Position numbers and translations under genes: made by a program
The notes under the pieces: model-generated
Seen by the model: only the letters and a program-made list of their open reading frames with translations
The model's database searches: none
What the model was told of the DNA's origin: nothing
NCBI GenBank assembly: GCA_963773905.1
Contig: CAVZDB010000008.1
Span: 575,200-639,199, forward strand
DNA: 64,000 bases
DNA from: an uncultured Acidobacteriota bacterium
GTDB lineage: Bacteria > Acidobacteriota > Thermoanaerobaculia > UBA5066 > Gp7-AA6
Direction of reading: 5' to 3'
Shown: in pieces, positions 7,342 through 45,502 of the stretch
How positions within the stretch are numbered: position 1 is the first letter of the stretch
Layout of the letters: every line of letters begins with the position of its first letter

Positions 7342-9379
7342 ATGAAGACGTATTACGCGACGACGCCGATCTACTACGTCAACGACCTGCCCCACATCGG
7401 GCACATCTACTCGACGGTGGTCACCGACGCGATGACGCGGTACCGGCGACTGATCGGCGAGAAGACGCGCTTTTTGACGGGCACGGACGAGCATGGGCAG
7501 AACATCGAGAAGGCGGCGATGGCGCAGGGCATCATGCCCCTCGCGCTGGCCGACCGCGTGGTCGCCCGCTACGAGCAGCTCTACCGGACCTTCGAGATCC
7601 AGAACGACGACTTCATCCGGACGACACAGGAGCGCCACAAGCGGGGCGTCCAGGCGCTGATCGGGCGGATCGACGCCGCGGGCGACTTCTACACCGCGAA
7701 GCACGAGGGCTGGTACTGCGCCAGCTGCGAGGCGTTCTACACGGAGAAGGAGCTCGACGCGACGAGCAACGACAAGAAGTGTCCCGTTCACGGCATTCCG
7801 ACCGCGTGGGAATCGGAGGAGAACGTCTTCTTCCGGCTCTCGAAATACGCGGAGCCGCTGCTCCGGCACTACGAGAGCCAGCCGGGCTTCGTGCGGCCCG
7901 AGAGCCGGCTCGCGGAGGTCGTCTCCTTCGTGAAGTCGGGCCTCTCCGACCTGTCGGTGTCGCGGACCAAGGTGAAGTGGGGGATCCCGTTCCCGGGGCA
8001 TCCCGGGCACGTCGTGTACGTGTGGCTGGACGCGCTCGCGAACTACATCACGGCTCTCGGGTTCGGCCAGGGCGGCGATGCGGAGGCGCTCTACCGCGAG
8101 TTCTGGGATCACCCCGAGGCGGAGCGCGTCCACGTCATCGGCAAGGACATCCTGCGGTTCCACGCGGTCTACTGGCCGGCGTTTCTGCTCTCGGCCGGCG
8201 TGCCCCTGCCGACGCGCGTCTGGGCGCACGGCTGGTGGCTGCGCGACGCGAAGAAGGTCTCCAAGTCCGTCGGCAACATCGTGCGTCCGGACCAGCTCGT
8301 CGCGGATTTCGGCCCCGACGCCCTGCGCTACTTCCTGCTGCGCGAGATGGCGTTCGGCCAGGACGCGAACTTCTCGGACGAGGCGTTCCTGACCCGGTAC
8401 AACGCCGACCTCGCCAACGACCTGGGCAACACCGTGTCCCGCGTCGCCGCGCTGCTGCGGCAGTCCTTCGGCGGCACGCCCAACGAGGTCTGCGACGACA
8501 ACGAGATCCTCGCGGCCTACGGCGACGCGCGCGCGGAGTGGCAGGCCGCGCTCGGCGACTGCCAGTTCAACCGGGCGCTCGAGGCCGTGTGGAAATTCCT
8601 CTCGGTGATCAACGGATTCATCGTCGCCAGGGAGCCCTGGAAGATCCGCAAGGAGGAGGGCGCGGATTCCGGCCGCCTGCACCGCATACTGTCGGCCGCG
8701 GCGGAGGGGATCCGACTCTCCGCGGTGATGCTCTCGCCGTTTCTTCCGGGGATCAGCCGGAGAATCTTCGCGACCTTCGCGATGGAGGCGAAGGACCCGT
8801 CGGCGCGGGACCTCGCGTGGGGAGGGCTTCCCGTCTCGCGGCCCATGCCGGAGGCGCCGGCTCTTTTCCCGCGCGTCGACGTCGCCGAATACTTCGCACG
8901 AAAGGACACACCCATGACCGAACCGACCCGGGGAGCACCCGCGGCGCCTGCTTTGCCCGCGGCTGGCGCTGAATCGCAGGCGGCTCCGGCCTCGCCGGCG
9001 GCTGGTGCCCCGCCGGCGGCTGGTGCCGCGGCGGCGCCTTCCGCCGACGACCGCATCGGCATCGAGGACTTCCAGAAGGTCCGGCTGAAGACGGCGAAGA
9101 TCGTCTCGGCCGAGCGCGTCCCGAAGTCGAACAAGCTCATGCGGCTCATGGTCGATCTGGGCGGCGAGCAGCGGCAGATCGTCGCCGGGATCGCGGCGCA
9201 GTACGAGCCCGAAGCGCTCCTCGGGCGCAACGTCGTCGTGGTCGCGAACCTGAAACCGGCGAAGCTCATGGGCGGTCGAGTCCAACGGCATGGTGCTCGC
9301 GGCCTCGGTCGGCGACGCGGGGGAGCCGGTGCTGTTGGATGTGCCGGCGCACGTGCCGGCCGGGAGCAAGGTGAAGTGA
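7342..9379 (+). CDS. metG: Methionyl-tRNA synthetase with C-terminal tRNA-binding domain; one frame break near 9270
   Basis: Contains PIYYVNDLPHIGHIYS (HIGH) and KVSKSVGN (KMSKS). The C-terminal domain IGIEDFQKVRLKTAKIV...KPAKLMG continues in the +1 frame as VESNGMVLAAS...AGSKVK* ending at 9379. Confidence 0.93.
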
Positions 9380-9413
9380 TTTTGGATTTTGGATTTTGGA
9401 TTTTGGATTGAGG
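9378..9413. repeat. Heptamer-array element, family A (GGATTTT), left arm only
   Basis: TGATTTT GGATTTT GGATTTT GGATTTT GGATTGA. It starts inside the metG TGA stop and matches the left arms at 10575 and 27871. No complementary arm follows. Confidence 0.9.
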
Positions 9414-9435
9414 CGCCGGGTACCACGTCCAGAGC

Positions 9436-10207
9436 ATGCTCGCCGATAGTCACTGCCATCTCCAAATGGCCGCGGATGCCACCGCGCTTCTCGAACGAGC
9501 TCGGGCCGCGGGCGTCACGCGATTCCTGGTCCCCGGGACGACGCTCGCGGATTCGGAGGCGGCGGTGGAGCTGGCCTCCGTCCACGCAGACGTCCTCGCG
9601 GCGGTCGGGATTCATCCGCACGAGTCCAGGGACTTCGACCCGGCACGCGATGGTGCGGGGTTCGAGGCGCTCGCGCGGCGGCCGGGCGTCGCGGCCATCG
9701 GCGAGGTCGGCCTCGACTTCCACTACGACCATTCGCCGCGCGCGACGCAGATCGAGGTCCTGGAGTGGATGCTGGACTGCGCGCGGCGGCTCGCCCTCCC
9801 GGTCATCCTCCACAACCGCGAGAGCGGATCGGAGATGCTCGCGCTGCTCGCCCGGACGGGCGCGGCCGAGCGGCCCGGTGTCTTCCACTCCTTCACCGAG
9901 GACGCGGACTACGGGAAGAAGGCGATCGGCGCTCGGATACCGCGTGTCGTTCTCGGGGATGCTGACGTTCAGGGCGGCCGAGAACATCCGGGCGGCGGCG
10001 GCGGGCCTGCCGCTCGACGCGATGATGGTCGAGACCGACACGCCGTTCCTCGCGCCGGTGCCGCACCGCGGAAAGCCCTGCGAGCCGGCGTTCGTGGTCG
10101 AGACGGCGAAGAAGCTGGCCGAGATCAAGGGAACCGACCTCGATGCGGTCGCGGGCGCGACGACCGGAAACTTCGAGCGCCTATTCCGTCCCGCCCCGGG
10201 CGCGTGA
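9436..10207 (+). CDS. tatD: TatD-family metal-dependent DNase/hydrolase; one frame break near 9935
   Basis: MLADSHCHLQ, GEVGLDFHYD and VILHNRES. The C-terminal half (LGYRVSFSGMLTF...VETDTPFLAPVPHRGKPCEPA) lies in the frame of ORF 9389..10207. Confidence 0.88.
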
Positions 10208-10572
10208 GCTCGCGCCGCATTTCGCCGGAGGAGTTCGACGCCTACGTCGCGGAGGCGCTCGACTCGGTGCCCGCGCCGTTTCGCAGGTATCTCGAGAACA
10301 TCGTCGTCGGCGTGGAGGAGGAGCCCTTCGAGGAGGACTACGAGGAGACCGACACGCCGGAGGACTCCGAGCTCTTCGGCATCTTCCGCGGCGTGCCCTT
10401 CTTCGAGCGCGGATCGGCGGTGTCGAACCTCCCGGCGCAGATCGCGATCTTCCGGGGCCCGATCCTGCGCAGCTTCGCGACCCGCGGCGAGGCCGTGCAG
10501 GCCATTCGGGATACCGTGGTCCACGAGGTCGGCCACATGCTGGGGCTCGACGACGAGGAAATGCCCTACTAG
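10204..10572 (+). CDS. Small zincin-like metallopeptidase family protein (DUF1025/Zincin_1-like)
   Basis: GTGA overlap with the tatD stop. Contains VPAPFRRYLENIVVGVEEEP and VVHEVGHMLGLDDEEM. Confidence 0.7.
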   Translation: MSSRRISPEEFDAYVAEALDSVPAPFRRYLENIVVGVEEEPFEEDYEETDTPEDSELFGIFRGVPFFERGSAVSNLPAQIAIFRGPILRSFATRGEAVQAIRDTVVHEVGHMLGLDDEEMPY

Positions 10573-10574
10573 GG

Positions 10575-10665
10575 GAATTTTGGATTTTGGATTTTCGATT
10601 TTGGATTGAGCCTGATCGGATGCTTGGTGCTTGTAATCCAAAATCCAAAATCCAAAATCTAAAAT
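10575..10665. repeat. Heptamer-array hairpin, family A (GGATTTT)
   Basis: Left arm is 5 heptamers at 10575-10609 (GAATTTT GGATTTT GGATTTT CGATTTT GGATTGA). Right arm at 10633-10665 is GTAATCC AAAATCC AAAATCC AAAATCT AAAAT. The stem is ~30 bp with 2 mismatches and fills the spacer between stop 10572 and ATG 10668. Confidence 0.95.
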
Positions 10666-10667
10666 AC

Positions 10668-11042
10668 ATGGTGATGATCGCAACGCTCTTCCTCGTCGCC
10701 TCGATGGCCACATCCGCTTCGACCCCTGTTGAGATCGCGCGCGCCGAGGCGGAGCAGAACGTGAAGTCGCCGGCGGGGCGGCGGTACGAGGGCGTCGTCA
10801 TCGGGCAGGTCGACGGGTGGCTGCGGCCGGCGATCGGGCGCTGCCTCAAGGATCTCCCGAAGGAGGAGCTCGTGTCGTTCGACGGCCTCGTCCGCGTCGG
10901 GGAGGAGGGAAAGGCCGCGGAGGTCGTGTTCGGGCCCGAGACGGCGCTCGCCCGCTGCGTCGCCCCCGACTTCCGGGACGCGGCCTACCCCCGGCCGCCG
11001 AAGCCGGACTGGTGGATCAAGATCGAGGTCCGGCCCCGGTAG
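10668..11042 (+). CDS. Hypothetical secreted protein
   Basis: The internal ATG of ORF 10143..11042 follows the repeat. Signal-like N-terminus MVMIATLFLVASMATSAS. No recognisable domain. Confidence 0.5.
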   Translation: MVMIATLFLVASMATSASTPVEIARAEAEQNVKSPAGRRYEGVVIGQVDGWLRPAIGRCLKDLPKEELVSFDGLVRVGEEGKAAEVVFGPETALARCVAPDFRDAAYPRPPKPDWWIKIEVRPR

Positions 11043-11098
11043 GTTTCGCGGGAGAGCGTCGCCGCGGGAGGCACGCCCCTTGCAGCCCTGTCCCCCAG

Positions 11099-11632
11099 AT
11101 GGCCGTGAGACAGGGCAGCGTCAAGGACCTCGAGACCGGGGAGACGGTCAGCCGCAAGCCGATCGGCGGCGCGCGCCTGAAGATCTCCCACGTCTTCACC
11201 GGCGTCGAGGACGTCGTTTACATCGCGCTCGGGCTGCTCCTCGCCGCGAGCGCGGGCGTCTCGCTCGCCAACGGCGCCGGCGCCTTCTGGGCGGCGGTCC
11301 GCAGCGACGCCCCCATGCAGGACATCGTCAACCTGCTCGACCGCATCCTGCTCGTGCTGATGATCGTGGAGCTGCTCTACACCGTGAAGGTTTCCTTCCG
11401 CGAGCACGCGCTGGTGCCGGAGCCGTTCTTGATCGTCGGCCTGATCGCGGTGACGCGGCGCATCCTGGTCGTCACCGCGCAGCTCGCGGTCCTGCTCGAG
11501 AAGCCGAACGAGGCGCTCTTCCGGAGCGCGATGCTCGAGCTCGGCATCCTGACCGTGATGGTCCTGGCGCTCGTGGCCTCGCTCTGGATTCTGCGCAAGC
11601 GGTCCGCGACGCCGGTCCCCGACCGGGCCTAG
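11099..11632 (+). CDS. PsiE-like (phosphate-starvation-inducible E family) membrane protein
   Basis: Four predicted TM segments and LLDRILLVLMIVELLYTV...FLIVGLIAVTRRILV, typical of the PsiE family. Confidence 0.6.
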   Translation: MAVRQGSVKDLETGETVSRKPIGGARLKISHVFTGVEDVVYIALGLLLAASAGVSLANGAGAFWAAVRSDAPMQDIVNLLDRILLVLMIVELLYTVKVSFREHALVPEPFLIVGLIAVTRRILVVTAQLAVLLEKPNEALFRSAMLELGILTVMVLALVASLWILRKRSATPVPDRA

Positions 11633-13059
11633 TCGGCGGCTGGCGCACCGCCTGCCGGACACGGCCGCGACTCGGGCAGATAGAGCACGACCGTGGGGCT
11701 CGCGAGCCGCGCGAACGTCGCGCACCGGCGCAGGCCGGCGGACGCCAGCGCCTCCGCGACGGCCGCGTCGGCGTCGGAGGCATAGAGCCCGACCGCGTCG
11801 GCTCCCGCTGCCGCGCGGCGCACCGCTTCGGGCTCGAGCGGTCGGGCCGGTCGGATGTCGCGGATCGTGACCTCGTTTCCCAGGTACAGCGACTCCCCGT
11901 ACGCCCACATCTGCTCGAGCGCGACCCCTCGAACAGGCGGCCTCAGTGCGTGGATCTGTCCCGCGGCCAGGATCGCGGCGGCCGACTTGTCTCTCCAGAG
12001 CGTCAGCGCCCGCTCCAGCCCCAGCGAAGCCGCCACGATCAGCGCCACGGTGGCGAGAACGCGGCCCTCTCGCGTCGCGTCCCGTAAGCGCTCCCAGCCG
12101 AGGGCCGCCGCGAGGCACAGGAACGGAATCACGAGCTGCGTGTAGCGGACCGACTTCGCGGGCGAGAAGGAGAGAAGCGCCGCGACCGCGAGGGCGGTGC
12201 CCAGAGACGCCGCGAGCCGCCGATCCCGCCGCGCCGCCAGGACGAGGAGGACGCTCGCGGGGCCGGCCCAGTGAAGGATGCGCTTGCCGTACCAAAACCA
12301 CGGCTCCGGTCTCGAGCTCGCGAGTCCCTGCACCTGCATGATCCGCCAGAACTCGCGGAGGGTGCCGAAGGGAGCGCCGGAGCTCCGGGCGTCGAATGCG
12401 CCGACGAACAGCAGGACGCCGGCCAGGAATCCGCCGAGGATCGCCGCGAGGGTTCGCGGATCTTTTCGATCCCACGCCGACCACGCGAGGAGCGCGGCGA
12501 GGGCGACGGCCTCGCTCCAGCGTACGGCGAACGCGGCCGCGACGAGGCCTCCGGCGAGGACCGCGAGGGAGCGGGTTCCAGGCTTCGCGCGGGCGACCGC
12601 GACGAACGCGGCGAGAACGAGACACGTCGCGATGGGGCGCGGGTAGGGTGTGCCGCCGTACCCGAGACTCAGCCCATGAACGGCGTAGAGGAACCCGGCG
12701 ACCCGGGCCGTCCTCTCGCTCCAGCCCCACGCGCGGGCGAGGGCGACGACCAGCGGCACGGCGAGCGTCGAGAAGAGGATCGTGGGGAGCGCGGCCAGGA
12801 CGGTCAGGGCCCGGGGACTCGTGAGGCCGGCCCCCGCGCCGAGAGCGACGAACGGGCAGGCGAGCGCGACCGGGTGGAAGAGCGAGCGGAGAGACCAGGC
12901 GCGATAGGTCAGCCGGCCCGCGCAGGCCGCGGCGGCCTGGACGACCTCCAGATCGTCCCCGGTCAGGAATCCCGGGAATCGCCATGCGGCGAAGAGCTTC
13001 AGGCCCGAGGTCGCGAGCAGGAGCGCGAAGAGAAACCGACCCCGTCCCGGTTGGTCCAT
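11629..13059 (-). CDS. Polytopic membrane protein, GT-C-like glycosyltransferase (ArnT/PMT/mannosyltransferase-like)
   Basis: 476 aa with >10 hydrophobic segments and an acidic motif TGDDLEVV in the first loop. Confidence 0.5.
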   Translation of the reverse strand: MDQPGRGRFLFALLLATSGLKLFAAWRFPGFLTGDDLEVVQAAAACAGRLTYRAWSLRSLFHPVALACPFVALGAGAGLTSPRALTVLAALPTILFSTLAVPLVVALARAWGWSERTARVAGFLYAVHGLSLGYGGTPYPRPIATCLVLAAFVAVARAKPGTRSLAVLAGGLVAAAFAVRWSEAVALAALLAWSAWDRKDPRTLAAILGGFLAGVLLFVGAFDARSSGAPFGTLREFWRIMQVQGLASSRPEPWFWYGKRILHWAGPASVLLVLAARRDRRLAASLGTALAVAALLSFSPAKSVRYTQLVIPFLCLAAALGWERLRDATREGRVLATVALIVAASLGLERALTLWRDKSAAAILAAGQIHALRPPVRGVALEQMWAYGESLYLGNEVTIRDIRPARPLEPEAVRRAAAGADAVGLYASDADAAVAEALASAGLRRCATFARLASPTVVLYLPESRPCPAGGAPAAD

Positions 13060-13143
13060 TCCGGGCTCGGGCCCCGAGGCGAGATCCTCACGAAACGGAA
13101 TCTGCGCGATCGCCGTGACTCGGGCGCGGAATCCGCGCGCGGC

Positions 13144-15373
<2,230 letters not shown>

Positions 15374-17218: not shown

Positions 17219-17330
17219 AGGTGATAGGTGATAGGTGATAGGTGATGGGGAAATCCCCAGTCACCTGCCGGCCATCACCCTTCTCCTCACACATAGACCT
17301 GTCACCTGTCACCTGACACCTATCACCTAT
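17219..17330. repeat. Heptamer-array hairpin, family B (GGTGAYA), composite
   Basis: (AGGTGAT)x4 at 17219-17246 and TGTCACC TGTCACC TGACACC TATCACC at 17300-17327, with an inner hairpin GGTGATGGGG-AAAT-CCCCAGTCACC. It fills the DUF503-rbfA spacer. Confidence 0.9.
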
Positions 17331-17334
17331 CTCC

Positions 17335-17622
17335 TCACACATGGATGAACTCGTTCTGGTATCCCAGCAGCTCGCCATCCAGATTCTCCTCCACGAAGCG
17401 CAGGATGTGCTGGAGCAGGGCGTCCAGCGGCTGCTGGTCGGGGCCGATGGCCGCCACCCCGAGCTTCGCACGCTGCAGGAGCTCCTGGTCGCCCACCTCG
17501 GCCGCGGAGACCTCGAACTCGTTGCGGATCCGGGCCTTGAGGCTCTTGACGACCATGCGCTTTTCCTTCAGCCCGCGGCAGCCCGGCAGGTGGATGTCGA
17601 AGACGGCGTAGGCGAGGACCAT
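17335..17622 (-). CDS. DUF503 family protein (YlxP-like)
   Basis: 95 aa with AVFDIHLPGCRGLKEKRMVVKSLKARI, in the conserved position between infB and rbfA. Confidence 0.85.
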   Translation of the reverse strand: MVLAYAVFDIHLPGCRGLKEKRMVVKSLKARIRNEFEVSAAEVGDQELLQRAKLGVAAIGPDQQPLDALLQHILRFVEENLDGELLGYQNEFIHV

Positions 17623-17623: not shown

Positions 17624-17714
17624 GGAGCTTTCAGCTCGCAGCTTCAGCTTACAGCCGACGCGGGGCGCGAAACGACGTCTCGCTGGGAGCCCTCAGCGGT
17701 CAGCTGAGAGCTAT
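17624..17714. repeat. Heptamer-array hairpin, family C (AGCTNNN)
   Basis: Left arm is AGCTTTC AGCTCGC AGCTTC AGCTTAC AGCCGAC. The reverse complement of the right arm is AGCTCTC AGCTGAC CGCTGAG GGCTCCC AGCGAGA. The infB TAG stop (17711-17713) lies in the last heptamer. Confidence 0.8.
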
Positions 17715-26470: not shown

Positions 26471-27865
<1,395 letters not shown>

Positions 27866-27870: not shown

Positions 27871-27949
27871 GAATTTTGGATTTTGGATTTTGGATTTTGG
27901 ATTGAAAACAATGCTTGTAATCCAAAATCCAAAATCTAAAATCCAAAAT
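27871..27949. repeat. Heptamer-array hairpin, family A (GGATTTT)
   Basis: Left arm at 27871-27905 is GAATTTT (GGATTTT)x3 GGATTGA. Loop is AAAACAATGCTT. Right arm at 27917-27949 is GTAATCC AAAATCC AAAATCT AAAATCC AAAAT. It fills the spacer up to the pyrE start. Confidence 0.95.
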
Positions 27950-27951
27950 CG

Positions 27952-31009: not shown

Positions 31010-31110
31010 GGAGCTTTCGGACTTCAGCTCACAGCTCTCAGCTCAGAGAAGATCTCACACGGAGGCCTTCCGGCTGACCGCTGGAAGCTGAAAGCTGCGA
31101 GCTGTGAGCG
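31010..31110. repeat. Heptamer-array hairpin, family C (AGCTNNN)
   Basis: Left arm is GGAGCTTTCGGACTTC AGCTCAC AGCTCTC AGCTCAG. Right arm is GGAAGCT GAAAGCT GCGAGCT GTGAGCG. It overlaps the last ~24 codons and the TGA of the YfhO-like ORF and abuts the GT2 start codon. Confidence 0.8.
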
Positions 31111-33377
31111 CGCAGGATCACCGCCAGCAAGGCGACTACGCCGGCGACGGAAATCAGAAGCTCCGCTCTCGGAATCACGAACCGCCCTTCCACGGTGTGG
31201 CGTCCGGCGGGCACATCCACCCCCAGGAAAAGGCCGTCGGCCGTGAAGGCGGGAACCTCGCGCCCGTCCAGGAAGCATCGCCAGTACGGTGGGAAGCGCT
31301 TCTGCGTCGTGACCAGGAGGGACGGCGCGCGGCCCTCGACCTCGACGCGAAAGCGTTCGGGCCGCAGCTCGGCGATGGCGACTCTTCCGATGCCGCGCGG
31401 GGCGATGCCCTCCGGAGTCGCCTCGGCCGCGTCCAGGCGGGCTCGATCGGCGGAATCCACGAAGACCGCGTGCGCGAGCGTGTCGCGATCGGCCTTCCGG
31501 ACCTCCTCGATCCCGCCGAGCCGCGTCTGCGCGACGCTGAAGAAACGCGGGAGCGCGGTCGGCCGCTCGAACAGCGTGAGGTCTTTTCCGGCGTAGGCGC
31601 GCGCGAGGAGCGGCCGCGGCCCCCCGGGTTCGCTGTGCGCCGCCGCCGCATTTCCATCCACGCGAAAGGGCGCGGCGTCCCGCGTCTCGGCCTCCGCGCC
31701 CACCGGGCTCGACGCCCCGGGCGGCGCGGCGAGCCAGCGCACGCCGAGGAGGTCGAGCACCGGCGAGGCCGGGTCGAGCGACCAGGGATCGAAGACGAGG
31801 TAGGTGCCATAGGGGCCGTAGGCGTTGGGATCGGCCGCGGTGACGAGGCGGCGATATCCCGCGTCGAGCAGGAAGTGGCCCCGCACGTCGTCGACACCGA
31901 GGGCCTCCGAGACGTTGGGGATCAGCGTCCATCCGGCGGCCGCGAACCGCTCTCCGCGCCGCGCGGCCTCCCGCAGCCGGACGATGCCGGGCGTGTCCTC
32001 GAAGACGGCCTGCTCGGGGCGGCACTCCGGGTAGAAGTCGAGCGCCAGGAGCGCCAGCGGGACCGCGATGGCGAACGGGACGATCCGAAGCACCAGCGCT
32101 CGCGCCGGGGAGTCCGCCGCGAGCCTCTCGAGCGCCTCCACGCCGCAGGCCGCGAGGATCGCGATGGCGAAGACGATCAGGATCTTCGCGCGTGCGAACA
32201 GGCCGATGTCGAGCAGGGGCAATTTCCCGACGACGGCGAGGAGCCCTCCGCCGCCGTAGAGCGGAAGGGCGATCGCCGCGCCGAGGACCGCCGCGAATCG
32301 CGCCTCGCTCCGGCGCTTCAGTGTCGCGAGCCCCACGAGCGCGAGTGCCGCCGCGGCGACACCGACGCCTGTGGCGGTCTCGATGTAGTTGTCTCCGGGG
32401 ATCCAGCCCACCCCGGCGTAGTTGTCGCGGCGGGGCGTGCCGACGTAGCCGGGCCATGCGTAGAGGATCAGCTGGCGCAGGGGGAGCGCGAAGGAGCTGC
32501 CCATGCCGCGCCGCAGCTCGCGGTAGCCGGACTCGCGCAGGAACCGCGAGGTCGCGAGGATGGACGGTGTCAGGATCGCTGCGGCGATCACCGCGGCGGC
32601 CGCGAGACGGGCAGAGGCGCGGGCGGCGCGCGCGAAACCGGCGCCACGGCGTTCGAACACACGCAGCAGCAGGTACAGGCTCGCCGCGGCCGCGCCGTAG
32701 ACGATCCAGTGCGGGAATCCTCCGGCGAGGCACAGCAGGATCGCGAGCGCGCCGAATCGGATCGCGCGCCACGCGCTCTCCTCCTCGAGCGCACGGTCCG
32801 CGGCCATCAGGAGCAGGGGGTACGTGACCGAGACGGAGGTCTGCATCCAGAGACCCCACACGGTCTGGCCCGTCGCGAACGCCCACGCGGCCGCACCGGC
32901 GGAGGCCGCGAGGTCCGAGAAGCGCCGGCTCCGGAGAAAGGCGTACGCGGCGAGGAAGGCGAAATTGAACTTGAGAAACAGGATTCCCGTCTCGATGCCG
33001 GCCTCCGGGAGAAGGAGCGCGGGCAGAGCGACGAAGGGGGAGAGGAACCCCTGCGCCAGGTGGAAGGGGCCGATCGCGCCCGACGACACCCACGGGTTCC
33101 AGAAGAGGCCCTCGGGGAACTTTCGATACCGCACGAGCGTCGTCTCGCCGGACGCGGCGGGATCCGAAAGCAGCCGGTTCTCGGACTCGAGCACTCCGTC
33201 CGGTCCCATCCGCCAGGGATGGTGGGCGCGGACGAAGTCGTGCGAGGAGAGGACGCCCCCGGTCCAGAGCAGGGGAGCGAAGAGGACGAGGTTGAAGACG
33301 AGGAGGGTCGCGGCGCCAACCCGAGGTGACAGGTGAGAGGTGGAAGGTGTTAGGGGTCCGACCCTGTCACCTGACAC
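31038..33377 (-). CDS. YfhO-like polytopic membrane protein (GT-C-type glycosyltransferase candidate)
   Basis: 779-aa ORF with an N-terminal multi-TM region (FLKFNFAFLAAYAFLRSRRFS...WGLWMQTSVSVTYPLLLMAAD) and a large C-terminal extracytoplasmic part. Both ends run into repeat elements, so the start and stop are uncertain. Confidence 0.65.
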   Translation of the reverse strand: MSGDRVGPLTPSTSHLSPRVGAATLLVFNLVLFAPLLWTGGVLSSHDFVRAHHPWRMGPDGVLESENRLLSDPAASGETTLVRYRKFPEGLFWNPWVSSGAIGPFHLAQGFLSPFVALPALLLPEAGIETGILFLKFNFAFLAAYAFLRSRRFSDLAASAGAAAWAFATGQTVWGLWMQTSVSVTYPLLLMAADRALEEESAWRAIRFGALAILLCLAGGFPHWIVYGAAAASLYLLLRVFERRGAGFARAARASARLAAAAVIAAAILTPSILATSRFLRESGYRELRRGMGSSFALPLRQLILYAWPGYVGTPRRDNYAGVGWIPGDNYIETATGVGVAAAALALVGLATLKRRSEARFAAVLGAAIALPLYGGGGLLAVVGKLPLLDIGLFARAKILIVFAIAILAACGVEALERLAADSPARALVLRIVPFAIAVPLALLALDFYPECRPEQAVFEDTPGIVRLREAARRGERFAAAGWTLIPNVSEALGVDDVRGHFLLDAGYRRLVTAADPNAYGPYGTYLVFDPWSLDPASPVLDLLGVRWLAAPPGASSPVGAEAETRDAAPFRVDGNAAAAHSEPGGPRPLLARAYAGKDLTLFERPTALPRFFSVAQTRLGGIEEVRKADRDTLAHAVFVDSADRARLDAAEATPEGIAPRGIGRVAIAELRPERFRVEVEGRAPSLLVTTQKRFPPYWRCFLDGREVPAFTADGLFLGVDVPAGRHTVEGRFVIPRAELLISVAGVVALLAVILRAHSSQLSASSGQPEGLRVRSSLS

Positions 33378-33386
33378 CTATCACCT
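33324..33386. repeat. Heptamer-array hairpin, family B (GGTGAYA)
   Basis: Left arm is GAGGTGA CAGGTGA GAGGTGG AAGGTGT TAGGGG. Loop is TCCGA. Right arm is CCC TGTCACC TGACACC TATCACC T. The methyltransferase TAG stop (33385-33387) lies in the first heptamer when read on the minus strand. Confidence 0.9.
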
Positions 33387-34311
33387 AAGCGCGGCGGCGT
33401 CCGACGAGCACGCGAAAGTAGGAATCCACCCAGCCCTTCTCGAGGAGATGGTCCTCGAGCGCAATCAGGCGCGAGAGCGCGCCGGTCTCGTCCTCGCGGA
33501 GACGCGCGATGTCCATGCACGGGAAGACGAACCAGAGGATGTTGCCGCCATACGGCCGGTCCTCCAGGACCTCGAAGAGCCGCTTCGCGGCCGGGAGGAT
33601 CGCGCTCGAGCGGATCGACTCGGAGGGGTCGTCCATCGGCAGCGGGATCGCGAGCTCGGAGCGGTTCTTGAGATCCGCGGGCAGGGCGTCGAACGCGCTG
33701 CGCGCGAACCCCCACTGCGCGTCGCTCCACTCCGAGCGCGAGGGGCCCATGTACTCGTCCAGGAAGATGAGGCCTCCCGGCTTGAGCGCCGCGCGCACCT
33801 CCTCCATCACGCCCTCGACGTTGCGGATGTGGTGGAGCGACCCGTGGAAGAAGACGATGTCGTAGCGCGCGCGCGGCAGGCGGATCGCGTTGATGTCCTC
33901 GACCCGATAGTCCAGCCGCCGCGCGAGGCCGGCCTCCTCCGCGCCGCGCCGGGCCTCCGCGATCGCCTCCGGCGAGAAGTCGACGCCCTCGATGCGCTCG
34001 CAGATGCCCTTGAGGAAGACGTCGCGCTCGAGCAGGCCCGTGCCGCAGCCGACGGAGAGGCCGAGCGGGACCGCCGCCGGAACGTACTTCTGGGCGAACC
34101 ACTCCATCGGCCAGCGGTTGGGATCGCCGGTCACCCGCCGGTTGATCGCGCGGCGCACCAGGGGCTGCGATCCCCAGTACCGGTCCTCGGGCTCCCCCGG
34201 GGCGCCGGCATCCCAGAACTCCCGGGCCGCCGCCGCCTCGGCACGGGCGGCGCGGAGAACACTCCAGCGCCGGGCGAGTGAGTTCAGCGAGGCGCGAATC
34301 GCGGATGCCAT
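33385..34311 (-). CDS. Class I SAM-dependent methyltransferase
   Basis: Contains LSVGCGTGLLERD (motif I), VDFSPEAI and DIVFFHGSLHHI. Confidence 0.8.
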   Translation of the reverse strand: MASAIRASLNSLARRWSVLRAARAEAAAAREFWDAGAPGEPEDRYWGSQPLVRRAINRRVTGDPNRWPMEWFAQKYVPAAVPLGLSVGCGTGLLERDVFLKGICERIEGVDFSPEAIAEARRGAEEAGLARRLDYRVEDINAIRLPRARYDIVFFHGSLHHIRNVEGVMEEVRAALKPGGLIFLDEYMGPSRSEWSDAQWGFARSAFDALPADLKNRSELAIPLPMDDPSESIRSSAILPAAKRLFEVLEDRPYGGNILWFVFPCMDIARLREDETGALSRLIALEDHLLEKGWVDSYFRVLVGRRRA

Positions 34312-34574: not shown

Positions 34575-34649
<75 letters not shown>

Positions 34650-34665
34650 GTCTCTTCGTTATTGC

Positions 34666-34741
34666 AGGCGCTTAGCTCAGCTGGGAGAGCGCTTCCTTCA
34701 CACGGAAGAGGTCAACGGTTCGATCCCGTTAGCGCCTACCA
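34666..34741 (+). tRNA. tRNA-Val (anticodon CAC), CCA encoded
   Basis: Acceptor AGGCGCT/AGCGCCT, anticodon stem CTTCC/GGAAG with loop TTCACAC, T arm AACGG-TTCGATC-CCGTT. Confidence 0.9.
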
Positions 34742-34749
34742 AAGAACCG

Positions 34750-34780
34750 AACGCGGGGTGGCCCGCGTTTTTTTGTTTTT
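34750..34780 (+). terminator. Intrinsic terminator after the tRNA-Val pair
   Basis: AACGCGGG-GTGG-CCCGCGTT followed by TTTTTTGTTTTT. Confidence 0.8.
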
Positions 34781-37959: not shown

Positions 37960-39012
37960 GTGTCGCACGACGCCGTCGAGAAGGTCCTGCGCTCCTTTCG
38001 CGAGGAGATCGCTCGAGGTGTGTCGAGCCGCGCCGAGTTCGAGCGCCTGAAGGGCGCCTACCTCGGACGGGAGAAGGGGCTCATCCCCCAGCTCCTGACC
38101 ACCCTCAAGACGCTGCCTCCCGCCGAGCGCGCCGCGTTCGGCGCGAGCGCCAATGCCGCGAAGGCGGAGGTCGAGGCCGCCCTCACCGACCTCGCGGCAC
38201 AGATCCAGCGCCGGGAGGCCGCGTCGCGCGACCGGGCCGCCGCGGTCGACGTGACCCTGCCGGGCCGCCGCGAGCGCGCCGGCGGGCTCCATCCGCTGAC
38301 GATCGTGCGCCGGCGGATCGAGGAGATCTTCCTCCGGATGGGCTATTCCATCGCCGACGGCCCCGAGGTCGAGAGCGACTTCCACAACTTCGAGGCGCTC
38401 AACTTCCCGCCGGAGCATCCGGCGCGGGACACGCAGGACACGCTCCTGCTCGACCGGCCGGCGCGCTCGCCGCTGCTCCTGCGCACGCACACCTCGCCCG
38501 TGCAGATTCGCGAGATGCGCAAGCACGGGGCGCCGCTGCGCATCCTGTGTCCCGGCCGCGTGTACCGCAAGGACGAGGTCGACGCGACGCACTCGCCGGT
38601 CTTTCACCAGGTCGAGGGCCTCCTGGTCGACCGCGGGATCTCCATGGCCGACCTGAAGGGCACCGTGTCGACGTTTCTCGAGGAGCTCTTCGGCAAAGGC
38701 ACGCACGCCCGCTTCATTCCCACGTTCTTCCCCTTCGTCGAGCCCGGCGTCGACGTCGCCATGAGCTGCATCTTCTGCAAGGGCACCGGCTGCCCGAAGT
38801 GCAAGGGCTCGGGCTGGATCGAGATCATGGGCGCGGGGATGGTGCATCCGCGCGTTCTCCAGGGCGTGGCGATCGATCCCGAGGAGTACACGGGCTTCGC
38901 CTTCGGCCTGGGCATCGACCGGGTCGCGCTGCTCCACTACGGATTCCCGGACCTGCGCCTTCTCTTCGAGGGCGACGAGCGGTTCCTGCGACAGTTCGCG
39001 GGGCCGGCCTAG
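37960..39012 (+). CDS. pheS: Phenylalanyl-tRNA synthetase alpha subunit
   Basis: 350 aa with HPLT, FPPEHPARDTQDT, RTHTSPVQIR, GRVYRKDEVDATHSPVFHQVEGL and AFGLGIDRVALL. Confidence 0.96.
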   Translation: MSHDAVEKVLRSFREEIARGVSSRAEFERLKGAYLGREKGLIPQLLTTLKTLPPAERAAFGASANAAKAEVEAALTDLAAQIQRREAASRDRAAAVDVTLPGRRERAGGLHPLTIVRRRIEEIFLRMGYSIADGPEVESDFHNFEALNFPPEHPARDTQDTLLLDRPARSPLLLRTHTSPVQIREMRKHGAPLRILCPGRVYRKDEVDATHSPVFHQVEGLLVDRGISMADLKGTVSTFLEELFGKGTHARFIPTFFPFVEPGVDVAMSCIFCKGTGCPKCKGSGWIEIMGAGMVHPRVLQGVAIDPEEYTGFAFGLGIDRVALLHYGFPDLRLLFEGDERFLRQFAGPA

Positions 39013-39023
39013 GCCTCGCCGCC

Positions 39024-41138: not shown

Positions 41139-41140
41139 CT

Positions 41141-41479
41141 ATGGATACCGTCAAGGTCTTCGACAGCCTGGATCGCAAGATCGAGCGATTGATCGACCGC
41201 CTCAAGTCGCTCGAGACCGAGAACGAGAAGCTCAAGAACGACGTCGCGACGGCCCGCAAGGCGGAGAAGGAGGCGGGCGGGTCGAAGGAGCGTCTCAAGT
41301 CGGTCGAGGCCGAGAACGAGAAACTCAAGAACGACCTCGCGGCTTCGCGCAAGGCCGAGAAGGAAGCGGGCAGCTCGAAGAGCGTCGTCGAGAAGATGGA
41401 GCGCGAGCAGAGCCTGGTTCGCGAGCGCCTCGAGAAGCTGATCGGATCGCTCGAGGCCGCGGAGGAGAAGCGCTCGTAG
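41141..41479 (+). CDS. Coiled-coil protein, ZapB-like cell-division candidate
   Basis: 112 aa, heptad-rich, with an internal ~31-aa duplication (ENEKLKND..RKAEKEAG.SK). Located between pheT and zapA. Confidence 0.5.
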   Translation: MDTVKVFDSLDRKIERLIDRLKSLETENEKLKNDVATARKAEKEAGGSKERLKSVEAENEKLKNDLAASRKAEKEAGSSKSVVEKMEREQSLVRERLEKLIGSLEAAEEKRS

Positions 41480-41488
41480 ACGCCGCCA

Positions 41489-41588
41489 TGTCATCCCGAC
41501 GCCGAGCGCAGCGAGGTGAAGGGACCCCTTTGAAGCCTTTGTGTTCCTTGGAAAGGGGTCCCTCGTCGCTCCGCTCCTCGGGATGACA
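41489..41588. repeat. Long imperfect palindrome (REP/MITE-like), family D
   Basis: Left arm is TGTCATCCCGACGCCGAGCGCAGCGAGGTGAAGGGACCCCTT, followed by a 22-nt loop. Right arm is AAGGGGTCCCTCGTCGCTCCGCTCCTCGGGATGACA. The downstream ATG (41583) lies in the right arm. Confidence 0.85.
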
Positions 41589-42461
41589 GAGATCGCCGCC
41601 TTCGGCCCCCGCTGTCTGGTCTGCGGCGCCGAGAAGTTCGCGGCGTTCGCGCGCACGCCGCCGGGGTCCTGGGTCCGCTGCCGGCGCTGCGGGCTCGTGC
41701 GCCAGGTGGATCCGCCGCCCGAATCGGTGACGCAGGCGCGCTACGGGTTCGCGCCGCGGCACTCGGAGGAGGCCTCGCCGGAATCCTGGGGCGAGACCCG
41801 GCCCGACGCGCACTCCCAATTCAAGTACTGGATCGTGGGCGAGGCGCTGCGCTCGCGGGGGCTGTCGGGCCGCCTCGTGGACGTGGGCTGCGGCAACGGC
41901 CTTCTGCAGCACCACCTCGCCTCGCTCGGGTTTGCCGACACCGTCGGGGTCGAGCCGTCCGGCAACCCGACCGGACACCGCGAGCTTCGCCTCGCGATCT
42001 ACAACGAGCCGGTCGAGACCTTCCTCGAGCGGCCCGGCATGGCCGGGGGTTTCGCGATCGCGGTGGCCAACCACGTCCTCGAGCACGCCTACGCTCCCGG
42101 GGAGCTTCTCCGCCAGTTGCGCGCGCTCGTGCGTCCCGGGGGGCACGTCTTCATCGCGACTCCCAACCTCGCCGGCGCGGCGATGCGCTGGAAGACGCTC
42201 CTCTCGCGGCTCTCCCTGAAGGCCCGCCCCTTCCGCCACCTCGACTATCCCAAGCACCTGGTCCTCTTCGACCGCCGCAACCTCCCCCGGCTGATCGCCG
42301 CGGCCGGGCTCGAGGTGCTGGCCGTCGAAACCTACACGCGGGCCTCGTCGGATGCCTCGAAGAAGCCCGCCCGCGCGAGCCTGTGGGACGCGCTGGGTTG
42401 GGGCGACAACATGTACGTGCTGGCGAAACGACCCGGACCGGAACCCGCCGCTCCGTCGTAA
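41583..42461 (+). CDS. Class I SAM-dependent methyltransferase with N-terminal Cys4 zinc-ribbon-like motif
   Basis: Contains CLVCGAEKF...CRRCG, VDVGCGNGLL and ANHVLEHAYAPGELL. Confidence 0.75.
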   Translation: MTEIAAFGPRCLVCGAEKFAAFARTPPGSWVRCRRCGLVRQVDPPPESVTQARYGFAPRHSEEASPESWGETRPDAHSQFKYWIVGEALRSRGLSGRLVDVGCGNGLLQHHLASLGFADTVGVEPSGNPTGHRELRLAIYNEPVETFLERPGMAGGFAIAVANHVLEHAYAPGELLRQLRALVRPGGHVFIATPNLAGAAMRWKTLLSRLSLKARPFRHLDYPKHLVLFDRRNLPRLIAAAGLEVLAVETYTRASSDASKKPARASLWDALGWGDNMYVLAKRPGPEPAAPS

Positions 42462-42521
42462 CCCGTTGACTCCTTTGGTCCAGACGAACTAGACTCGCGC
42501 AGGAAAGGAGTCAGTGTTCCG

Positions 42522-42815
42522 ATGGATAGGCGGGGCAGTGTGACTCAAGTCGAAATCTTCGGGCAGACGTACAGCGTCCGCGCCGAGGGCGAAAGCGGCT
42601 ATATTCACGATCTGGCCCGCTTCGTGGACTCACGCATGAAAGAAGTGGCGGAGAAGACGGCGACTGTCGACACCACGAAGATCGCCATACTGGCCGCCCT
42701 GAACATTTCGGATGATCTTTATCAAGTCGAAAAGCGTAGGCAGGGCGACCCCACGGACTCGAAGGCCCGTGCGGAGCGCCTGATTCGAAAACTGGACGAC
42801 GCCCTCGGGCTCTAG
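42522..42815 (+). CDS. zapA: Cell division protein ZapA
   Basis: 97 aa with VEIFGQTYSVRAEGESGYIHDLARFVDSRMKEV...AILAALNISDDL. Confidence 0.85.
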   Translation: MDRRGSVTQVEIFGQTYSVRAEGESGYIHDLARFVDSRMKEVAEKTATVDTTKIAILAALNISDDLYQVEKRRQGDPTDSKARAERLIRKLDDALGL

Positions 42816-42986
42816 GCGAGGCGTCGGCACCCCGCGCCAAGAGGAGCCGCGGGGACACACGAAGGAATACGAGAGGTCGTTTTGAGTCCGGTTGTCCCGT
42901 TTCCTAACCCTCGTCGGAAGAGTCGCTTCCGCCCCATCGTGTAGCCGCGTCAGCCCAGGGCCCCCAGGGCGAGTAGGGGGCTCGGA

Positions 42987-44555
42987 ATGAACACAACGAT
43001 CGCGATAGCGGTCGCGGCGGGCCTCGTCGTGGCCGCCGTGCTGCTCGCCCTCGGCTATGCCTTCCTTCGCAAGAAGGTCGAGCAGGAGCGCGCGGGCATC
43101 CGCTCGGAGGCGGACAAGGCCCTGGCCGAGGCCCGCAAGCTCGCGGACACCAAAGTTCGCGAGGCCGACATCGAGGCCAAGGAGAAGGTCCTGGCCGCCC
43201 GGGCGGAGTTCGACAAGACGGTCCAGGCCCGGCGCCAGGAGATCGCGGGCCTCGAGAAGAGGGTCCAGCAGAAGGAAGAAAACCTCGACCGCAAGCTCTC
43301 CCATCAGGAGCGGCGGGAGGAGGAGTACGGCGCCAAGGAACGGGCCGTCGCCGATTCCCAGCGCCGGCTGGAGGAGAAGCAGGCGGAGGTCCAACGGGTC
43401 ATCGAGGAGCAGCGCCTCCGGCTGGAGCAGATCTCGGGGCTGACCGCCGTCGATGCCAAGCGCGATCTCGTCAAGTCGGTCGAGAACGAGGCGCGGATCG
43501 AGGCCGCCGGCCTCATTCGCCGGATCGAGGAAGAGGCCAACGAGCAGTCCTCGCAGAAGGCGCGCCGGATCATCGGCATGGCCATCCAGCGGCTCGCCTC
43601 CGACACCGTCGTGGAGGCCACCGTCTCGGTGGTCGAGCTGCCCTCGGACGACCTCAAGGGCCGCATCATCGGCCGCGAGGGCCGCAACATCCGCGCGCTG
43701 GAGGCGGCGACGGGCGTCGACCTGATCATCGACGACACGCCGGAGGCCATCGTGATCTCGGCCTTCGAGCCGCTGCGGCGCGAGGTCGCGCGGCACGCGC
43801 TCGAGAAGCTGATCGCGGACGGACGGATTCACCCGGCCCGCATCGAGGAGATCGTCGAGAAGGTGCGCTCCGAGCTGTGGGAGAAGATCCGGCAGGAGGG
43901 CGAGGCCGCGGCGCTCGAGTTCGGCATCCCCGACCTGCACCCGGAGCTGGTCAAGATGCTGGGCCGGCTGAAGTACCGGACCTCGTACGGGCAGAACGTC
44001 CTCCAGCACTCCAAGGAGGTCGGCTACCTCGCGATGAACATGGCCGCCGAGCTCGGCGCCAAGGTGGACGTCGTCCGCCGCGCGGGTCTCCTGCACGACA
44101 TCGGCAAGGCGATCGACCGCGAGATGGAAGGCACGCACCTCGAGCTCGGACGCGAGGTCTTGAAGAAGTTCGGCGAGAGCAGCGAGGTCATTCACGCGAT
44201 GGAGTGCCACCACGGCGACTACGAGCCGCGCTCGCTCGAGGCGGTGCTCGTCAACGGGGCGGACGCGCTCTCGGCGGCGCGGCCGGGGGCCCGCCGCGAG
44301 ATCCTGGAGACCTACGTCAAGCGTCTCGAGAAGCTCGAGCACATCGCCGACGGCTTCAAGGGCGTGCAGAAGGCGTTTGCGATCCAGGCCGGCCGCGAGC
44401 TGCGCATCGTCGTCGAGGCCAACCGCGTGACCGACGACGAGGCGCTGTGGCTTTCGCGCGACGTCGCCAAGAAGATCGAGGCCGAGCTGCAGTACCCCGG
44501 CCAGATCAAGGTGACCGTCATCCGGGAGACGCGAGCGGTGGAGTACGCGAGATAG
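42987..44555 (+). CDS. rny: Ribonuclease Y
   Basis: 522 aa with an N-terminal TM helix, coiled coil, KH domain ([15 protein letters not shown]) and HD domain (LLHDIGKA...HH). Confidence 0.96.
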
Positions 44556-44634
44556 GTGACAGGTGACGGGTGATAGGTGACAGGGAGGACGGTAATGTCG
44601 GTCCCGATCACCTGACACCTGTCACCTACCACCT
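44552..44634. repeat. Heptamer-array hairpin, family B (GGTGAYA)
   Basis: Left arm is A TAGGTGA CAGGTGA CGGGTGA TAGGTGA CAGGG, with the rny TAG inside the first heptamer. The loop is 17 nt. Right arm is CCC GATCACC TGACACC TGTCACC TACCACC T. It fills the rny-ymdB spacer. Confidence 0.95.
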
Positions 44635-44640
44635 TCCTCT

Positions 44641-45429
44641 ATGAACCTCCTCTTCGTCGGCGACGTCGTGGGCGCGCCGGGCCGCCGGGCGCTCGCGGAG
44701 GCGCTCGAGAAGGTCATCGACCGGCACCGTGTCGACTTCACGGTCGTCAACGTCGAGAACGCCGCGGGCGGGTTCGGCCTGACGGTCGAGCTCTTCGACG
44801 ACTTGTCGAGGATGCCGATCGACGTGTTCTCCTCGGGCAACCACATCTGGGACAAGAAGGAGATCTACGACACGCTCAACTCCTCCGATCGCCTGCTGCG
44901 TCCGGCGAACTACCCGCCCGGCAATCCGGGCCGCGGCTGGACGGTCCAGCAGACCTCGGCCGGCATCCCGGTGGGCGTGCTCAATCTCCAGGGCCAGGTG
45001 TTCATGCCCGCCAACGCCGACTCGCCCTTCCGCGTGGCCGACGAGGAGCTCGCCCGGGCCGGAGACGTCAGGGTGATCCTGGTCGACATCCACGCCGAGG
45101 CGACCTCGGAGAAGGCCGCGCTGGGCTGGTACCTGGACGGAAGGGTGTCGGCCGTCATCGGCACGCACACGCACGTGCCGACCGCGGACGAGACCATCCG
45201 GCCCGGAGGAACCGCCTTCCTCTCGGACGCGGGAATGACCGGGGCCTACGAGGGCATCATCGGATTCACCAAGGATCGGATCATCGAGAAGTTCCTGTCC
45301 CAGACGCCGCGATCCTTCGAGACCGCGAAGAAGGACATCCGGCTGTCGGGCTGCGTCGTGGACGTGGACGAGGCGACCGGGAAGGCGCGGAGGATCGAGC
45401 GAGTGCAGGTGAAAATAGGTGACAGGTGA
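44641..45429 (+). CDS. ymdB: YmdB-family metallophosphoesterase (2',3'-cyclic-nucleotide phosphodiesterase, TIGR00282)
   Basis: Contains MNLLFVGDVVGAPGR, VNVENAAGGFG, SGNHIWDKKE and VDIHAEATSEK. It keeps the conserved rny neighbourhood. The last 4 codons and the TGA are repeat-encoded. Confidence 0.9.
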   Translation: MNLLFVGDVVGAPGRRALAEALEKVIDRHRVDFTVVNVENAAGGFGLTVELFDDLSRMPIDVFSSGNHIWDKKEIYDTLNSSDRLLRPANYPPGNPGRGWTVQQTSAGIPVGVLNLQGQVFMPANADSPFRVADEELARAGDVRVILVDIHAEATSEKAALGWYLDGRVSAVIGTHTHVPTADETIRPGGTAFLSDAGMTGAYEGIIGFTKDRIIEKFLSQTPRSFETAKKDIRLSGCVVDVDEATGKARRIERVQVKIGDR

Positions 45430-45502
45430 CAGGTGATAGGTAACAGGCGATGAGCGTGGACCTGCTCCGGCCCTGTCACCTGACCCCTATCACCTGACAC
45501 CT
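45415..45502. repeat. Heptamer-array hairpin, family B (GGTGAYA)
   Basis: Left arm is A TAGGTGA CAGGTGA CAGGTGA TAGGTAA CAGG. The loop is 23 nt. Right arm is CCC TGTCACC TGACCCC TATCACC TGACACC T. It ends 3 nt before ATG 45506. Confidence 0.95.

Follow-up and report, generated by a model that had tools for sequence, protein, structure and literature searches.

Tandem heptanucleotide repeats of many unrelated units form hairpins at gene junctions in Thermoanaerobaculia (Acidobacteriota)

The window analysed here, a 64,000-nt stretch of a Thermoanaerobaculia genome (Acidobacteriota; contig CAVZDB010000008.1, positions 575,200 to 639,199, numbered from 1), contains nine elements made of tandem heptamers, most of them hairpins, at gene junctions. 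We observed that such arrays have a period of 7 nt (rarely 8) whatever the sequence of the unit, that they are intergenic and start at the stop codon of the upstream gene, that they are gained and lost between species of about 90% identity, and that they change by whole units. The heptanucleotide repeats of cyanobacteria go by the name STRR (reportedly Mazel et al. 1990). The repeats of the window are of a kind already described, and they belong to the same class as these STRRs and the GGGAATC repeats of Xanthomonas. What is new here is the host lineage, the many unrelated units with identical geometry, the very fast turnover at orthologous junctions, and a four-unit mode and polarity that are independent of G-tracts, which weakens the explanation by G-quadruplexes. 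We consider it probable, if only just, that the elements are fast-evolving and dispensable slippage repeats, tolerated as their stem sets stop and start codons side by side.

The GC content of the window is 70%. Its genes assign it to Thermoanaerobaculia, the relatives of the RNase Y gene (96-60% amino-acid identity) coming solely from metagenome-assembled genomes (MAGs) of this class. An initial annotation of the window had described three unrelated families of units, A (GGATTTT), B (GGTGAYA) and C (AGCTNNN), building one type of hairpin with a loop of 5-25 nt, always at gene junctions. This observation is largely correct and lies far beyond chance. Tandem Repeats Finder, backed by our own period scan, recovered arrays of 7-nt units (4.0-4.6 copies) at each of the nine sites, and an inverted-repeat scan paired most of the window arrays. 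At seven of the nine sites the arrays are convergent and able to form a stem-loop, with the G-rich strand by the 5' open reading frame (ORF). The common architecture holds for these seven, whereas the array at 9378 has one arm and the element at 17624 is degenerate; the loop range fails at 17219, where the centre measures about 50 nt. The typical arm of the seven strong hairpins is about 31 nt long, which equals four 7-nt units plus 3 nt. RNA folding on the sense strand of the flanking genes gave long hairpins at these seven sites, far more stable than dinucleotide shuffles (z-scores below), with minimum free energies (MFE) of -36 to -57 kcal/mol for the stems. The predicted stem length was 25-45 bp, and the predicted folds place the stop and start codons at the stem base, a few nt apart. 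Family A is present three times and family B four times within the 64 kb:

9378-9409: family A half-element consisting of one GGATTTT array (4.6 units, 32 nt; Tandem Repeats Finder and frame analysis) without a complementary arm (z +0.65); it begins at the canonical metG stop (TGA, 9377-9379), and the TatD start (9436) lies 26 nt downstream.
10577-10665 (site 10575): family A hairpin (MFE -40.9, z -5.8); 5' arm (ATTTTGG)x4.4 at 10577-10607, loop of 27 nt, 3' arm (AATCCAA)x4.4 at 10635-10665; the predicted stem has at its base both the upstream stop TAG (10570-10572) and the ATG downstream (10668).
17219-17335: family B hairpin (z -3.4); AGGTGAT x4 at 17219-17246 and ACCTRTC x5.5 at 17297-17335, between DUF503 (minus strand, stop 17335-17337) and rbfA (start 17215); the centre of about 50 nt holds degenerate units and a small GGGGAAATCCCC hairpin.
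17624-17710: family C (AGCTNNN) degenerate element between infB (minus strand, stop 17711-17713) and DUF503 (start 17622); weak period-7 signal (best period 7, 0.46), no single stable hairpin (z -1.95).
27873-27950 (site 27871): family A hairpin (z -8.0); arms 27873-27903 and 27919-27950, loop of 15 nt, flanked by the stop (27863-27865) of a sigma-54-activator-like gene and by a phosphoribosyltransferase gene (27952).
31010-31110: family C hairpin of mixed AGCTNNN units (z -3.8), overlapping the last 24 or so codons of the YfhO-like ORF (minus strand, stop 31038-31040) and ending 1 nt short of a GT2 start (31008).
33323-33387 (site 33324): family B hairpin (z -4.5) between the methyltransferase and YfhO-like ORFs; the methyltransferase stop (33385-33387, minus strand) is within its first unit.
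44552-44634: family B hairpin (MFE -57.1, z -7.6) filling the rny-ymdB spacer; 5' arm (AGGTGAC)x4.4 at 44554-44584, 3' arm at 44604-44634; its first unit includes the rny stop TAG (44553-44555), and ymdB starts with the ATG at 44641.
45415-45502: family B hairpin (z -5.0); arms 45417-45447 and 45472-45502, preceded by ymdB and followed by a GT2 glycosyltransferase gene (ATG 45506); the ymdB stop TGA (45427-45429) is inside the second unit, and therefore the YmdB tail KIGDR* (five residues) is encoded by the element.

The gene context was as annotated: metG-TatD, nusA-infB-DUF503-rbfA-truB, rny-ymdB-GT2 and methyltransferase-YfhO-like-GT2. Six stop codons lie inside elements (metG, infB, methyltransferase, rny, ymdB and YfhO-like), the first five of them in the first units. 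For metG this is limited to the canonical frame because of an apparent frameshift near 9277 (9265-9285). The long metG ORF (7342-9411) reads through the GGATTTT array to 9411, while the conserved C-terminus of the tRNA-binding domain (...VESNGMVLAAS...AGSKVK*) goes on in the +1 frame to the stop at 9377-9379. The frameshift reflects an error in the assembly or else a genuine lesion.

All eight starts preceded by a hairpin or array were without a Shine-Dalgarno motif, as the initial annotation had pointed out. This is not distinctive, as the motif is present in just 24 of 72 window gene calls and two-thirds of the window genes are without one; a missing Shine-Dalgarno sequence was thus ruled out as a hallmark. 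The unit of family B, AGGTGAT/C, is complementary to the 3' tail of 16S rRNA. The 5' arm in all four family B hairpins (17219-17335, 33323-33387, 44552-44634 and 45415-45502) thus strings together Shine-Dalgarno-like sites, and its partner, the 3' arm (…CACCTTCCTCT), resembles an anti-Shine-Dalgarno sequence. This likeness is probably a coincidence because it is confined to family B.

To place the window in its lineage, we took a census of tandem arrays of period 4-12, scored leniently, in the window and 80 related loci (699.5 kb in total; loci of relatives carry labels such as L001). Arrays of period 7 were by far the most frequent (86), followed by periods 8 (19), 6 (11), 12 (8), 9 (3), 4 (1) and 5 (1), with periods 10 and 11 essentially absent. 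First-order Markov shuffles gave about one array per period. The 86 period-7 arrays fell into 51 unit classes. By gene calls that were crude and based on the GC content of third codon positions (GC3), 82 of the 105 arrays of period 7 or 8 were outside genes, despite about 82% of the DNA being coding, and several arrays counted as inside genes were in miscalled ORFs. Hairpins started a median of 5 nt past the stop codon, and within 10 nt in 27 of 39 cases. In a 626-kb control set of infB-anchored loci from mixed, distant bacteria, taken from among the matches listed, we found just 11 period-7 arrays, nearly all in Acidobacteriota loci and again at infB-DUF503-rbfA junctions. The arrays are thus a real phenomenon; they are intergenic, specific to period 7 and limited to certain lineages.

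Arrays of period 8 were seen to build the same hairpin from stop to start (L036 5523-5626 and 6421-6536; L014 6416-6518; L015-L017 with TCACCCGA; L202 1933-2027). In L053, L055 and L065 (about 1680-3390) a GGGGAGT or CGGGAGT hairpin was present at nearly every junction upstream of rny, three of them within 1.7 kb; the array load therefore differs strongly between Thermoanaerobaculia genomes. At the rny-ymdB junction of L035 (5584-5816), GTTGTTA and CTAACAA arrays stand 164 nt apart around a terminator-like hairpin (GGGCTCCGG...CCGGAGCCC followed by TTTTT), and therefore arrays can bracket other features of a spacer.

In the window all elements are between co-directional genes, as had been emphasized, and this held no significance in the wider set. 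Hairpins were counted in 29 of 456 co-directional, 12 of 71 divergent and 2 of 57 convergent spacers, so that co-directional spacers were not preferred beyond their abundance and divergent spacers had a similar rate per kb. These counts do not show the suggested enrichment in co-directional or essential operons. Among the few single arrays, seven were nearest to a stop and seven to a start.

The comparison of orthologous junctions uncovered a rapid turnover. The rny-ymdB spacer was bimodal among 65 related species: 27 of them had 0-21 nt (often TAGATG), and the other 38 had 33-340 nt. About half of the 65 possessed a hairpin of this type. Among the long spacers, 24 gave a best period of 7 and 8 gave a best period of 8, with units that all differed (GCCGTAA, TAGGTCG, AGTCCAA, CGGGACT, GGAAGTC, GAGGACA, GTTGTTA, CTCTTAG and others). 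The claim of unrelated units sharing one architecture was therefore broader than first stated, with dozens of units at one orthologous junction. When syntenic junctions were compared as the initial annotation had proposed, relatives with about 90% DNA identity (L001 and the metagenome contigs L199-L201) lacked the elements at 44552 and 45415, and L001 had a GTGATTT hairpin exactly at the ATGA stop/start overlap of the window (46345). Moreover, a shared element of the close genomes L021, L025 and L023 displayed an indel of one 7-nt unit and the separate homogenisation of one or the other arm, which is direct evidence of evolution in place by whole units. A single metagenome scan revealed no strain-level variants and gave one further relative of about 90% identity (L199-L201). 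The loop of the 44552 hairpin (44585-44603) is weakly similar to the 21-nt rny-ymdB spacer of relatives (L199 2862-2882; ACGG.AA...CGGTC.CG), with a permutation p of about 0.02 for L199 and 0.24 for L001, and this sequence likeness hints that arrays may have grown on both sides of an old spacer.

Hairpins of other kinds were found in the same spacers. A second type of hairpin insertion in the lineage is a non-heptamer palindrome of the window (41489-41588; arms TGTCATCCCGACGCCGAGCGCAGCGAGG / CCTCGTCGCTCCGCTCCTCGGGATGACA), which lies between two genes and is absent from L001. GC-rich non-heptamer palindromes or repeats in L001 (7790-7875) and L199 (3667-3735), of the GCCCTGAGGGC type and GTAGGGGCGGGGC...GCCCCTAC, occupy junctions that in the window are empty or filled by a heptamer hairpin. 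The spacers of this clade collect hairpins of several kinds.

Beyond the window, the exact 26-nt GGATTTT array occurred in at least 118 contigs among the matches listed, with hosts in Cyanobacteria, Chloroflexota, Verrucomicrobiota, Planctomycetota, Acidobacteriota and others. The listed loci held 362 period-7 arrays of 109 unit classes, and one MAG, CALMZP, had at least five GGATTTT hairpins. The control unit GGTTATT, which has the same base composition, was as widespread as GGATTTT among the matches listed, and its listed loci held 322 period-7 arrays. Therefore the units are arbitrary and the common feature is the period, in particular lineages; GGATTTT was ruled out as a special unit. Units 'preferred' by several phyla were rejected likewise (10 unit classes shared against about 5 expected). 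Arrays of arbitrary heptamers were found in Cyanobacteria, Chloroflexota, Planctomycetota, Bacteroidota and other phyla, and the link to the cyanobacterial STRR drawn in the initial annotation is borne out by the abundance of both GGATTTT and GGTTATT arrays in cyanobacteria and several other phyla. Repeats and palindromes are prone to mis-assembly in short-read MAGs, and the window has its apparent metG frameshift. However, the probability of an assembly or binning artefact is negligible, given that the same junctions and the same architecture recurred in dozens of independent assemblies from different projects, that this architecture also occurs in isolate and near-complete genomes such as Calothrix NIES-22 and Sphaerospermopsis NIES-73, and that such repeats have been published for Xanthomonas and Nostoc (PMC4692102).

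Heptanucleotide repeats have been described as the most abundant class of long simple sequence repeats (SSRs) in many prokaryotes by Mrazek et al. 2007, who proposed a link to polymerase slippage (both as cited in PMC4679880). The elements studied here have the marks of this class: at least three tandem copies, about four as a rule, an excess of period 7 and an intergenic location near ORF ends. The closest precedent is that of Rehm et al. 2015 (PMC4692102), in whose work Xanthomonas genomes have about 185 GGGAATC arrays each and Nostoc has arrays of GGGGAYT. These arrays are intergenic, preferentially between aligned ORFs, have about four units and no identified function, and vary in length and sequence between close species. 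In Xanthomonas they lie at most 50 bp from stop or start codons, some overlapping the stop codon, and 70-75 convergent inverted pairs per genome are able to form stem-loops (PMC4692102). Therefore every architectural feature seen here has a precedent, in a high-GC genome, and the novelty that had been implied for the palindromic form in such a genome does not stand. The likeness extends to the period of 7, the mode of about four units, the intergenic position, the stop overlap, the G-rich strand beside its 5' ORF and the inverted pairs. In contrast to the Rehm repeats, the window has several unrelated units, some without G-tracts, almost all arrays are in hairpin form, and the host is an acidobacterium of Thermoanaerobaculia. 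The turnover is also much higher, as Xcc and Xac share 83% of sites whereas gain and loss are apparent here already at about 90% identity.

Cyanobacterial STRRs resemble the window elements in that several tandem heptamers occur per genome, intergenic and highly repeated (three heptamer units in Calothrix PCC 7601, as cited in PMC4692102), and the GGATTTT array of the window is present verbatim in many Nostocales genomes. However, the cyanobacterial arrays are mostly single or composite, often longer and less regularly paired into hairpins, and reside in low-GC genomes. The TAACTGA repeats that MacGregor 2015 (PMC4679880) described for marine Beggiatoaceae, Cyanobacteria and Bacteroidetes have 2-6 copies a few nt upstream of starts, occur in essential-gene operons with few canonical ribosome-binding sites and are scattered across phyla; they differ in having one dominant unit and direct repeats only, with one inverted case among 170. 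In Haemophilus influenzae, the hmw1A (ATCTTTC)n hairpin in the RNA of the 5' untranslated region (5'-UTR) is an RNase III substrate, and changes in its repeat number depend on the hairpin, on transcription and on RNase III (PMC12721329). There, too, one arm of a long RNA hairpin comes from a heptamer SSR that is transcribed, but hmw1A is a single phase-variable 5'-UTR locus with at least 11 units, the other arm is G-rich and not a repeat, and the pyrimidine-rich repeat arm is 5', the opposite polarity.

Other classes were considered and rejected. No element was among the terminator-like sites, which speaks against intrinsic terminators; canonical terminators are elsewhere in the window (26414 and 34749). 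Only tRNAs passed the gathering score of any Rfam 15 family, the elements giving sub-threshold matches to eukaryotic miRNA precursors, i.e. generic hairpins. A CRISPR-like reading was ruled out on anatomy.

An element has a unit X array of about 31 nt against the upstream stop, a unique centre, and a reverse-complementary arm of about 31 nt against the next start. In the account that we propose, the arrays would arise and grow by replication slippage, and template switching or conversion between arms would keep the two roughly complementary. At any given site the element would be dispensable. Being located inside operons, the elements are presumably transcribed, and the predicted RNA stem of 25-45 bp would bring the upstream stop beside the downstream start. 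Such apposition would explain why the elements are tolerated where relatives have a spacer of 0-20 nt or a stop/start overlap, as the coupling of cistrons may survive the insertion via the stem. As side effects, double-stranded RNA targets for RNase III and structure-dependent translational coupling might be expected, and a conserved site-specific regulatory role would not. The predicted stems reach the length of an RNase III substrate (near-perfect double-stranded RNA of about 20 bp at least), and the elements may be substrates of this enzyme, for which the hmw1A heptamer hairpin (PMC12721329) is an experimental precedent.

If the hairpins were instead selected cis-regulatory RNAs, i.e. RNase III processing sites, attenuators or coupling devices that set the expression ratio of neighbours, their predicted stems (25-45 bp, -36 to -57 kcal/mol) exactly between stop and start would be readily understood. 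The repeated occupation of rny-ymdB, of the junction after ymdB and, in other Acidobacteriota, of infB-DUF503-rbfA would fit as well, as would the other GC-rich palindrome that some relatives without a heptamer hairpin have at the same junction (L199) and the function of the hmw1A hairpin as an RNase III target (PMC12721329). We nevertheless regard this as doubtful. About 40% of the species lack a long spacer at the same junction (0-21 nt), close relatives differ, and the arms mutate and homogenise independently, without compensation. Moreover, sense RNA has no folding advantage over antisense RNA, single-arm arrays exist (9378), and divergent spacers hold elements at a similar rate per kb.

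A different account of the elements would be that of non-autonomous mobile hairpins resembling REPINs or MITEs (miniature transposable elements with inverted repeats), in which hairpins or 31-nt arms are copied in trans and slippage modifies them later. One unit does recur at several unlinked sites of a genome (A three times and B four times in the window, and the GGATTTT hairpins of MAG CALMZP), presence and absence are clean between genomes of roughly 90% identity, and the arm length of about 31 nt is discrete. The loops of the 10575 and 27871 hairpins, the two A loops, have ATGCTTGT in common, the inner ends of the B copies are similar (CCGNCCCTGTCACC-like), and a precedent for the mobilisation of hairpin doublets in trans exists in REPINs (PMC3116915). 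REPINs also share the size of about 70-110 nt, the two inverted short repeats, the extragenic location, the many copies and the variable presence in relatives. However, neither a target-site duplication nor a conserved target was apparent in the flanks, the loops are otherwise unrelated within and between genomes, and a separate sequence-specific recognition system would be required for each of the 51 or more unit classes in 80 genomes. The arms of REPs are imperfect palindromes, specific to a genome and read by a RAYT transposase (PMC3116915), whereas the arms here are direct heptamer arrays of arbitrary sequence that are not self-complementary, and Rehm et al. saw no association with mobile elements (PMC4692102). 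Copying in trans is thus unlikely. Assignment to REP/REPIN was rejected on the absence of conserved imperfect palindromes. Assignment to MITEs was rejected because the loops are unrelated and no target-site duplication was seen in the flanks of at least 20 GGATTTT hairpins or at filled versus empty sites. No RAYT transposase was found among the 20 window proteins scanned, the search being limited to those (64 kb of the genome).

Several observations weigh against neutral slippage, tolerated by virtue of the stem, as a full explanation. The arm length in the Thermoanaerobaculia set was 30-32 nt in 41 of the 86 arrays, with minor modes one unit away, and the copy number was 4.5 units in 43 of them; in a set made up mainly of cyanobacteria and Bacteroidota the arm-length mode was broader. 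So sharp a mode is not what neutral slippage predicts. Nor does it predict the polarity of the arms. A hairpin of the form X...rc(X), in which rc denotes the reverse complement, is identical on both strands, and therefore the choice of the unit in the 5' arm is an intrinsic property. The G-rich unit formed the 5' arm in 14 of 16 cases in Thermoanaerobaculia (14:2, P = 0.004), 35 of 39 in other phyla (35:4, P = 3e-7) and 15 of 16 in a third set (15:1, P = 5e-4); wherever a partner arm was detected, GGATTTT was always the 5' arm and AAAATCC the 3' arm. In addition, slippage leaves the prevalence of period 7 over periods 5 and 6 unexplained, and several copies of one arbitrary unit per genome would need copying between sites or a genome-specific bias. 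The folding energies of sense and antisense RNA were without bias, and therefore nothing there shows selection on RNA. The crudeness of the GC3-based gene calls behind the intergenic counts belongs on the same side.

The constancy of period, arm length, polarity and stop/start contact with a varying unit also argues against G-quadruplexes and sequence-specific binding proteins, and these regularities, independent of sequence as they are, speak for a cause in structure or mutation. Rehm et al. 2015 proposed that four G-tracts 7 nt apart would form a G-quadruplex in DNA or RNA. This reading would account for the prevalence of four units and draws on the in vitro G-quadruplex formation by GGGAATC repeats (PMC4692102), and the four-unit mode, the fixed orientation of the G-rich strand to genes and the GG in units A and B would agree with it. 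However, no GG or CC was present in 20 of the 86 Thermoanaerobaculia arrays (AGCTNNN, GTTGTTA and CTCTTAG types among them), and the mode of about 4.5 units was as sharp in these (10 of 20). Families A and B have GG only and could give at best weak two-tetrad structures, family C has neither GG nor CC, and in the hairpin form the G-rich arm is paired. This makes G-quadruplexes a highly unlikely basis of the pattern.

Equally improbable, in our estimation, are multivalent landing pads for a protein whose domains or subunits would each read about 7 nt (cold-shock-domain proteins, ribosomal protein S1 and CsrA being examples). MacGregor 2015 proposed this for the TAACTGA repeats (PMC4679880), and in its favour are the fixed period of 7, the arrays adjoining start codons in a genome with few Shine-Dalgarno motifs and the GGA, GAG or AGG in many 5'-arm units. 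The arbitrary unit sequences rule out a sequence-specific reader, and the hairpin, with both arms paired, would be closed to single-strand binders.

As slippage explains neither the fixed period, nor the 31-nt mode, nor the polarity, there is room for a process that writes repeats. An unrecognised machinery, independent of the unit sequence and specific for the 7-nt period, is a rather improbable source of the arrays; a repeat-adding polymerase, an end-healing activity that adds G-rich 7-nt repeats to 3' ends, or an expansion coupled to RNA hairpins and RNase III could be candidates. If true, the writer would be common to the heptamer-rich Acidobacteriota, Cyanobacteria, Chloroflexota, Planctomycetota, Bacteroidota and Xanthomonas, and could account for the fixed period, the quantum of about 31 nt, the mostly convergent, inward orientation of G-rich units and the reuse of units within a genome.

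Bacterial heptamer repeats have been known for decades, and their origin and function are still unexplained. Thermoanaerobaculia represent a natural experiment, with dozens of units at one orthologous operon junction under constant geometry, and the lineage is a good comparative system for this old and unsolved question. The tight essential junctions infB-rbfA and rny-ymdB tolerate predicted stems of -40 to -57 kcal/mol, which makes them good test cases for RNase III processing and for coupling across a hairpin.

Two further features of the window are unrelated to the heptamer arrays. Two tandem tRNA-Val genes (anticodons GAC and CAC) at 34575-34770 are followed by a canonical intrinsic terminator (34749-34770), and therefore the organism uses ordinary terminators. 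At 3512-3721 a 217-nt spacer between two plus-strand genes carries three tandem 69-nt copies (97% identical; strong fold, z -5.1), a repeat that is not of the heptamer type.

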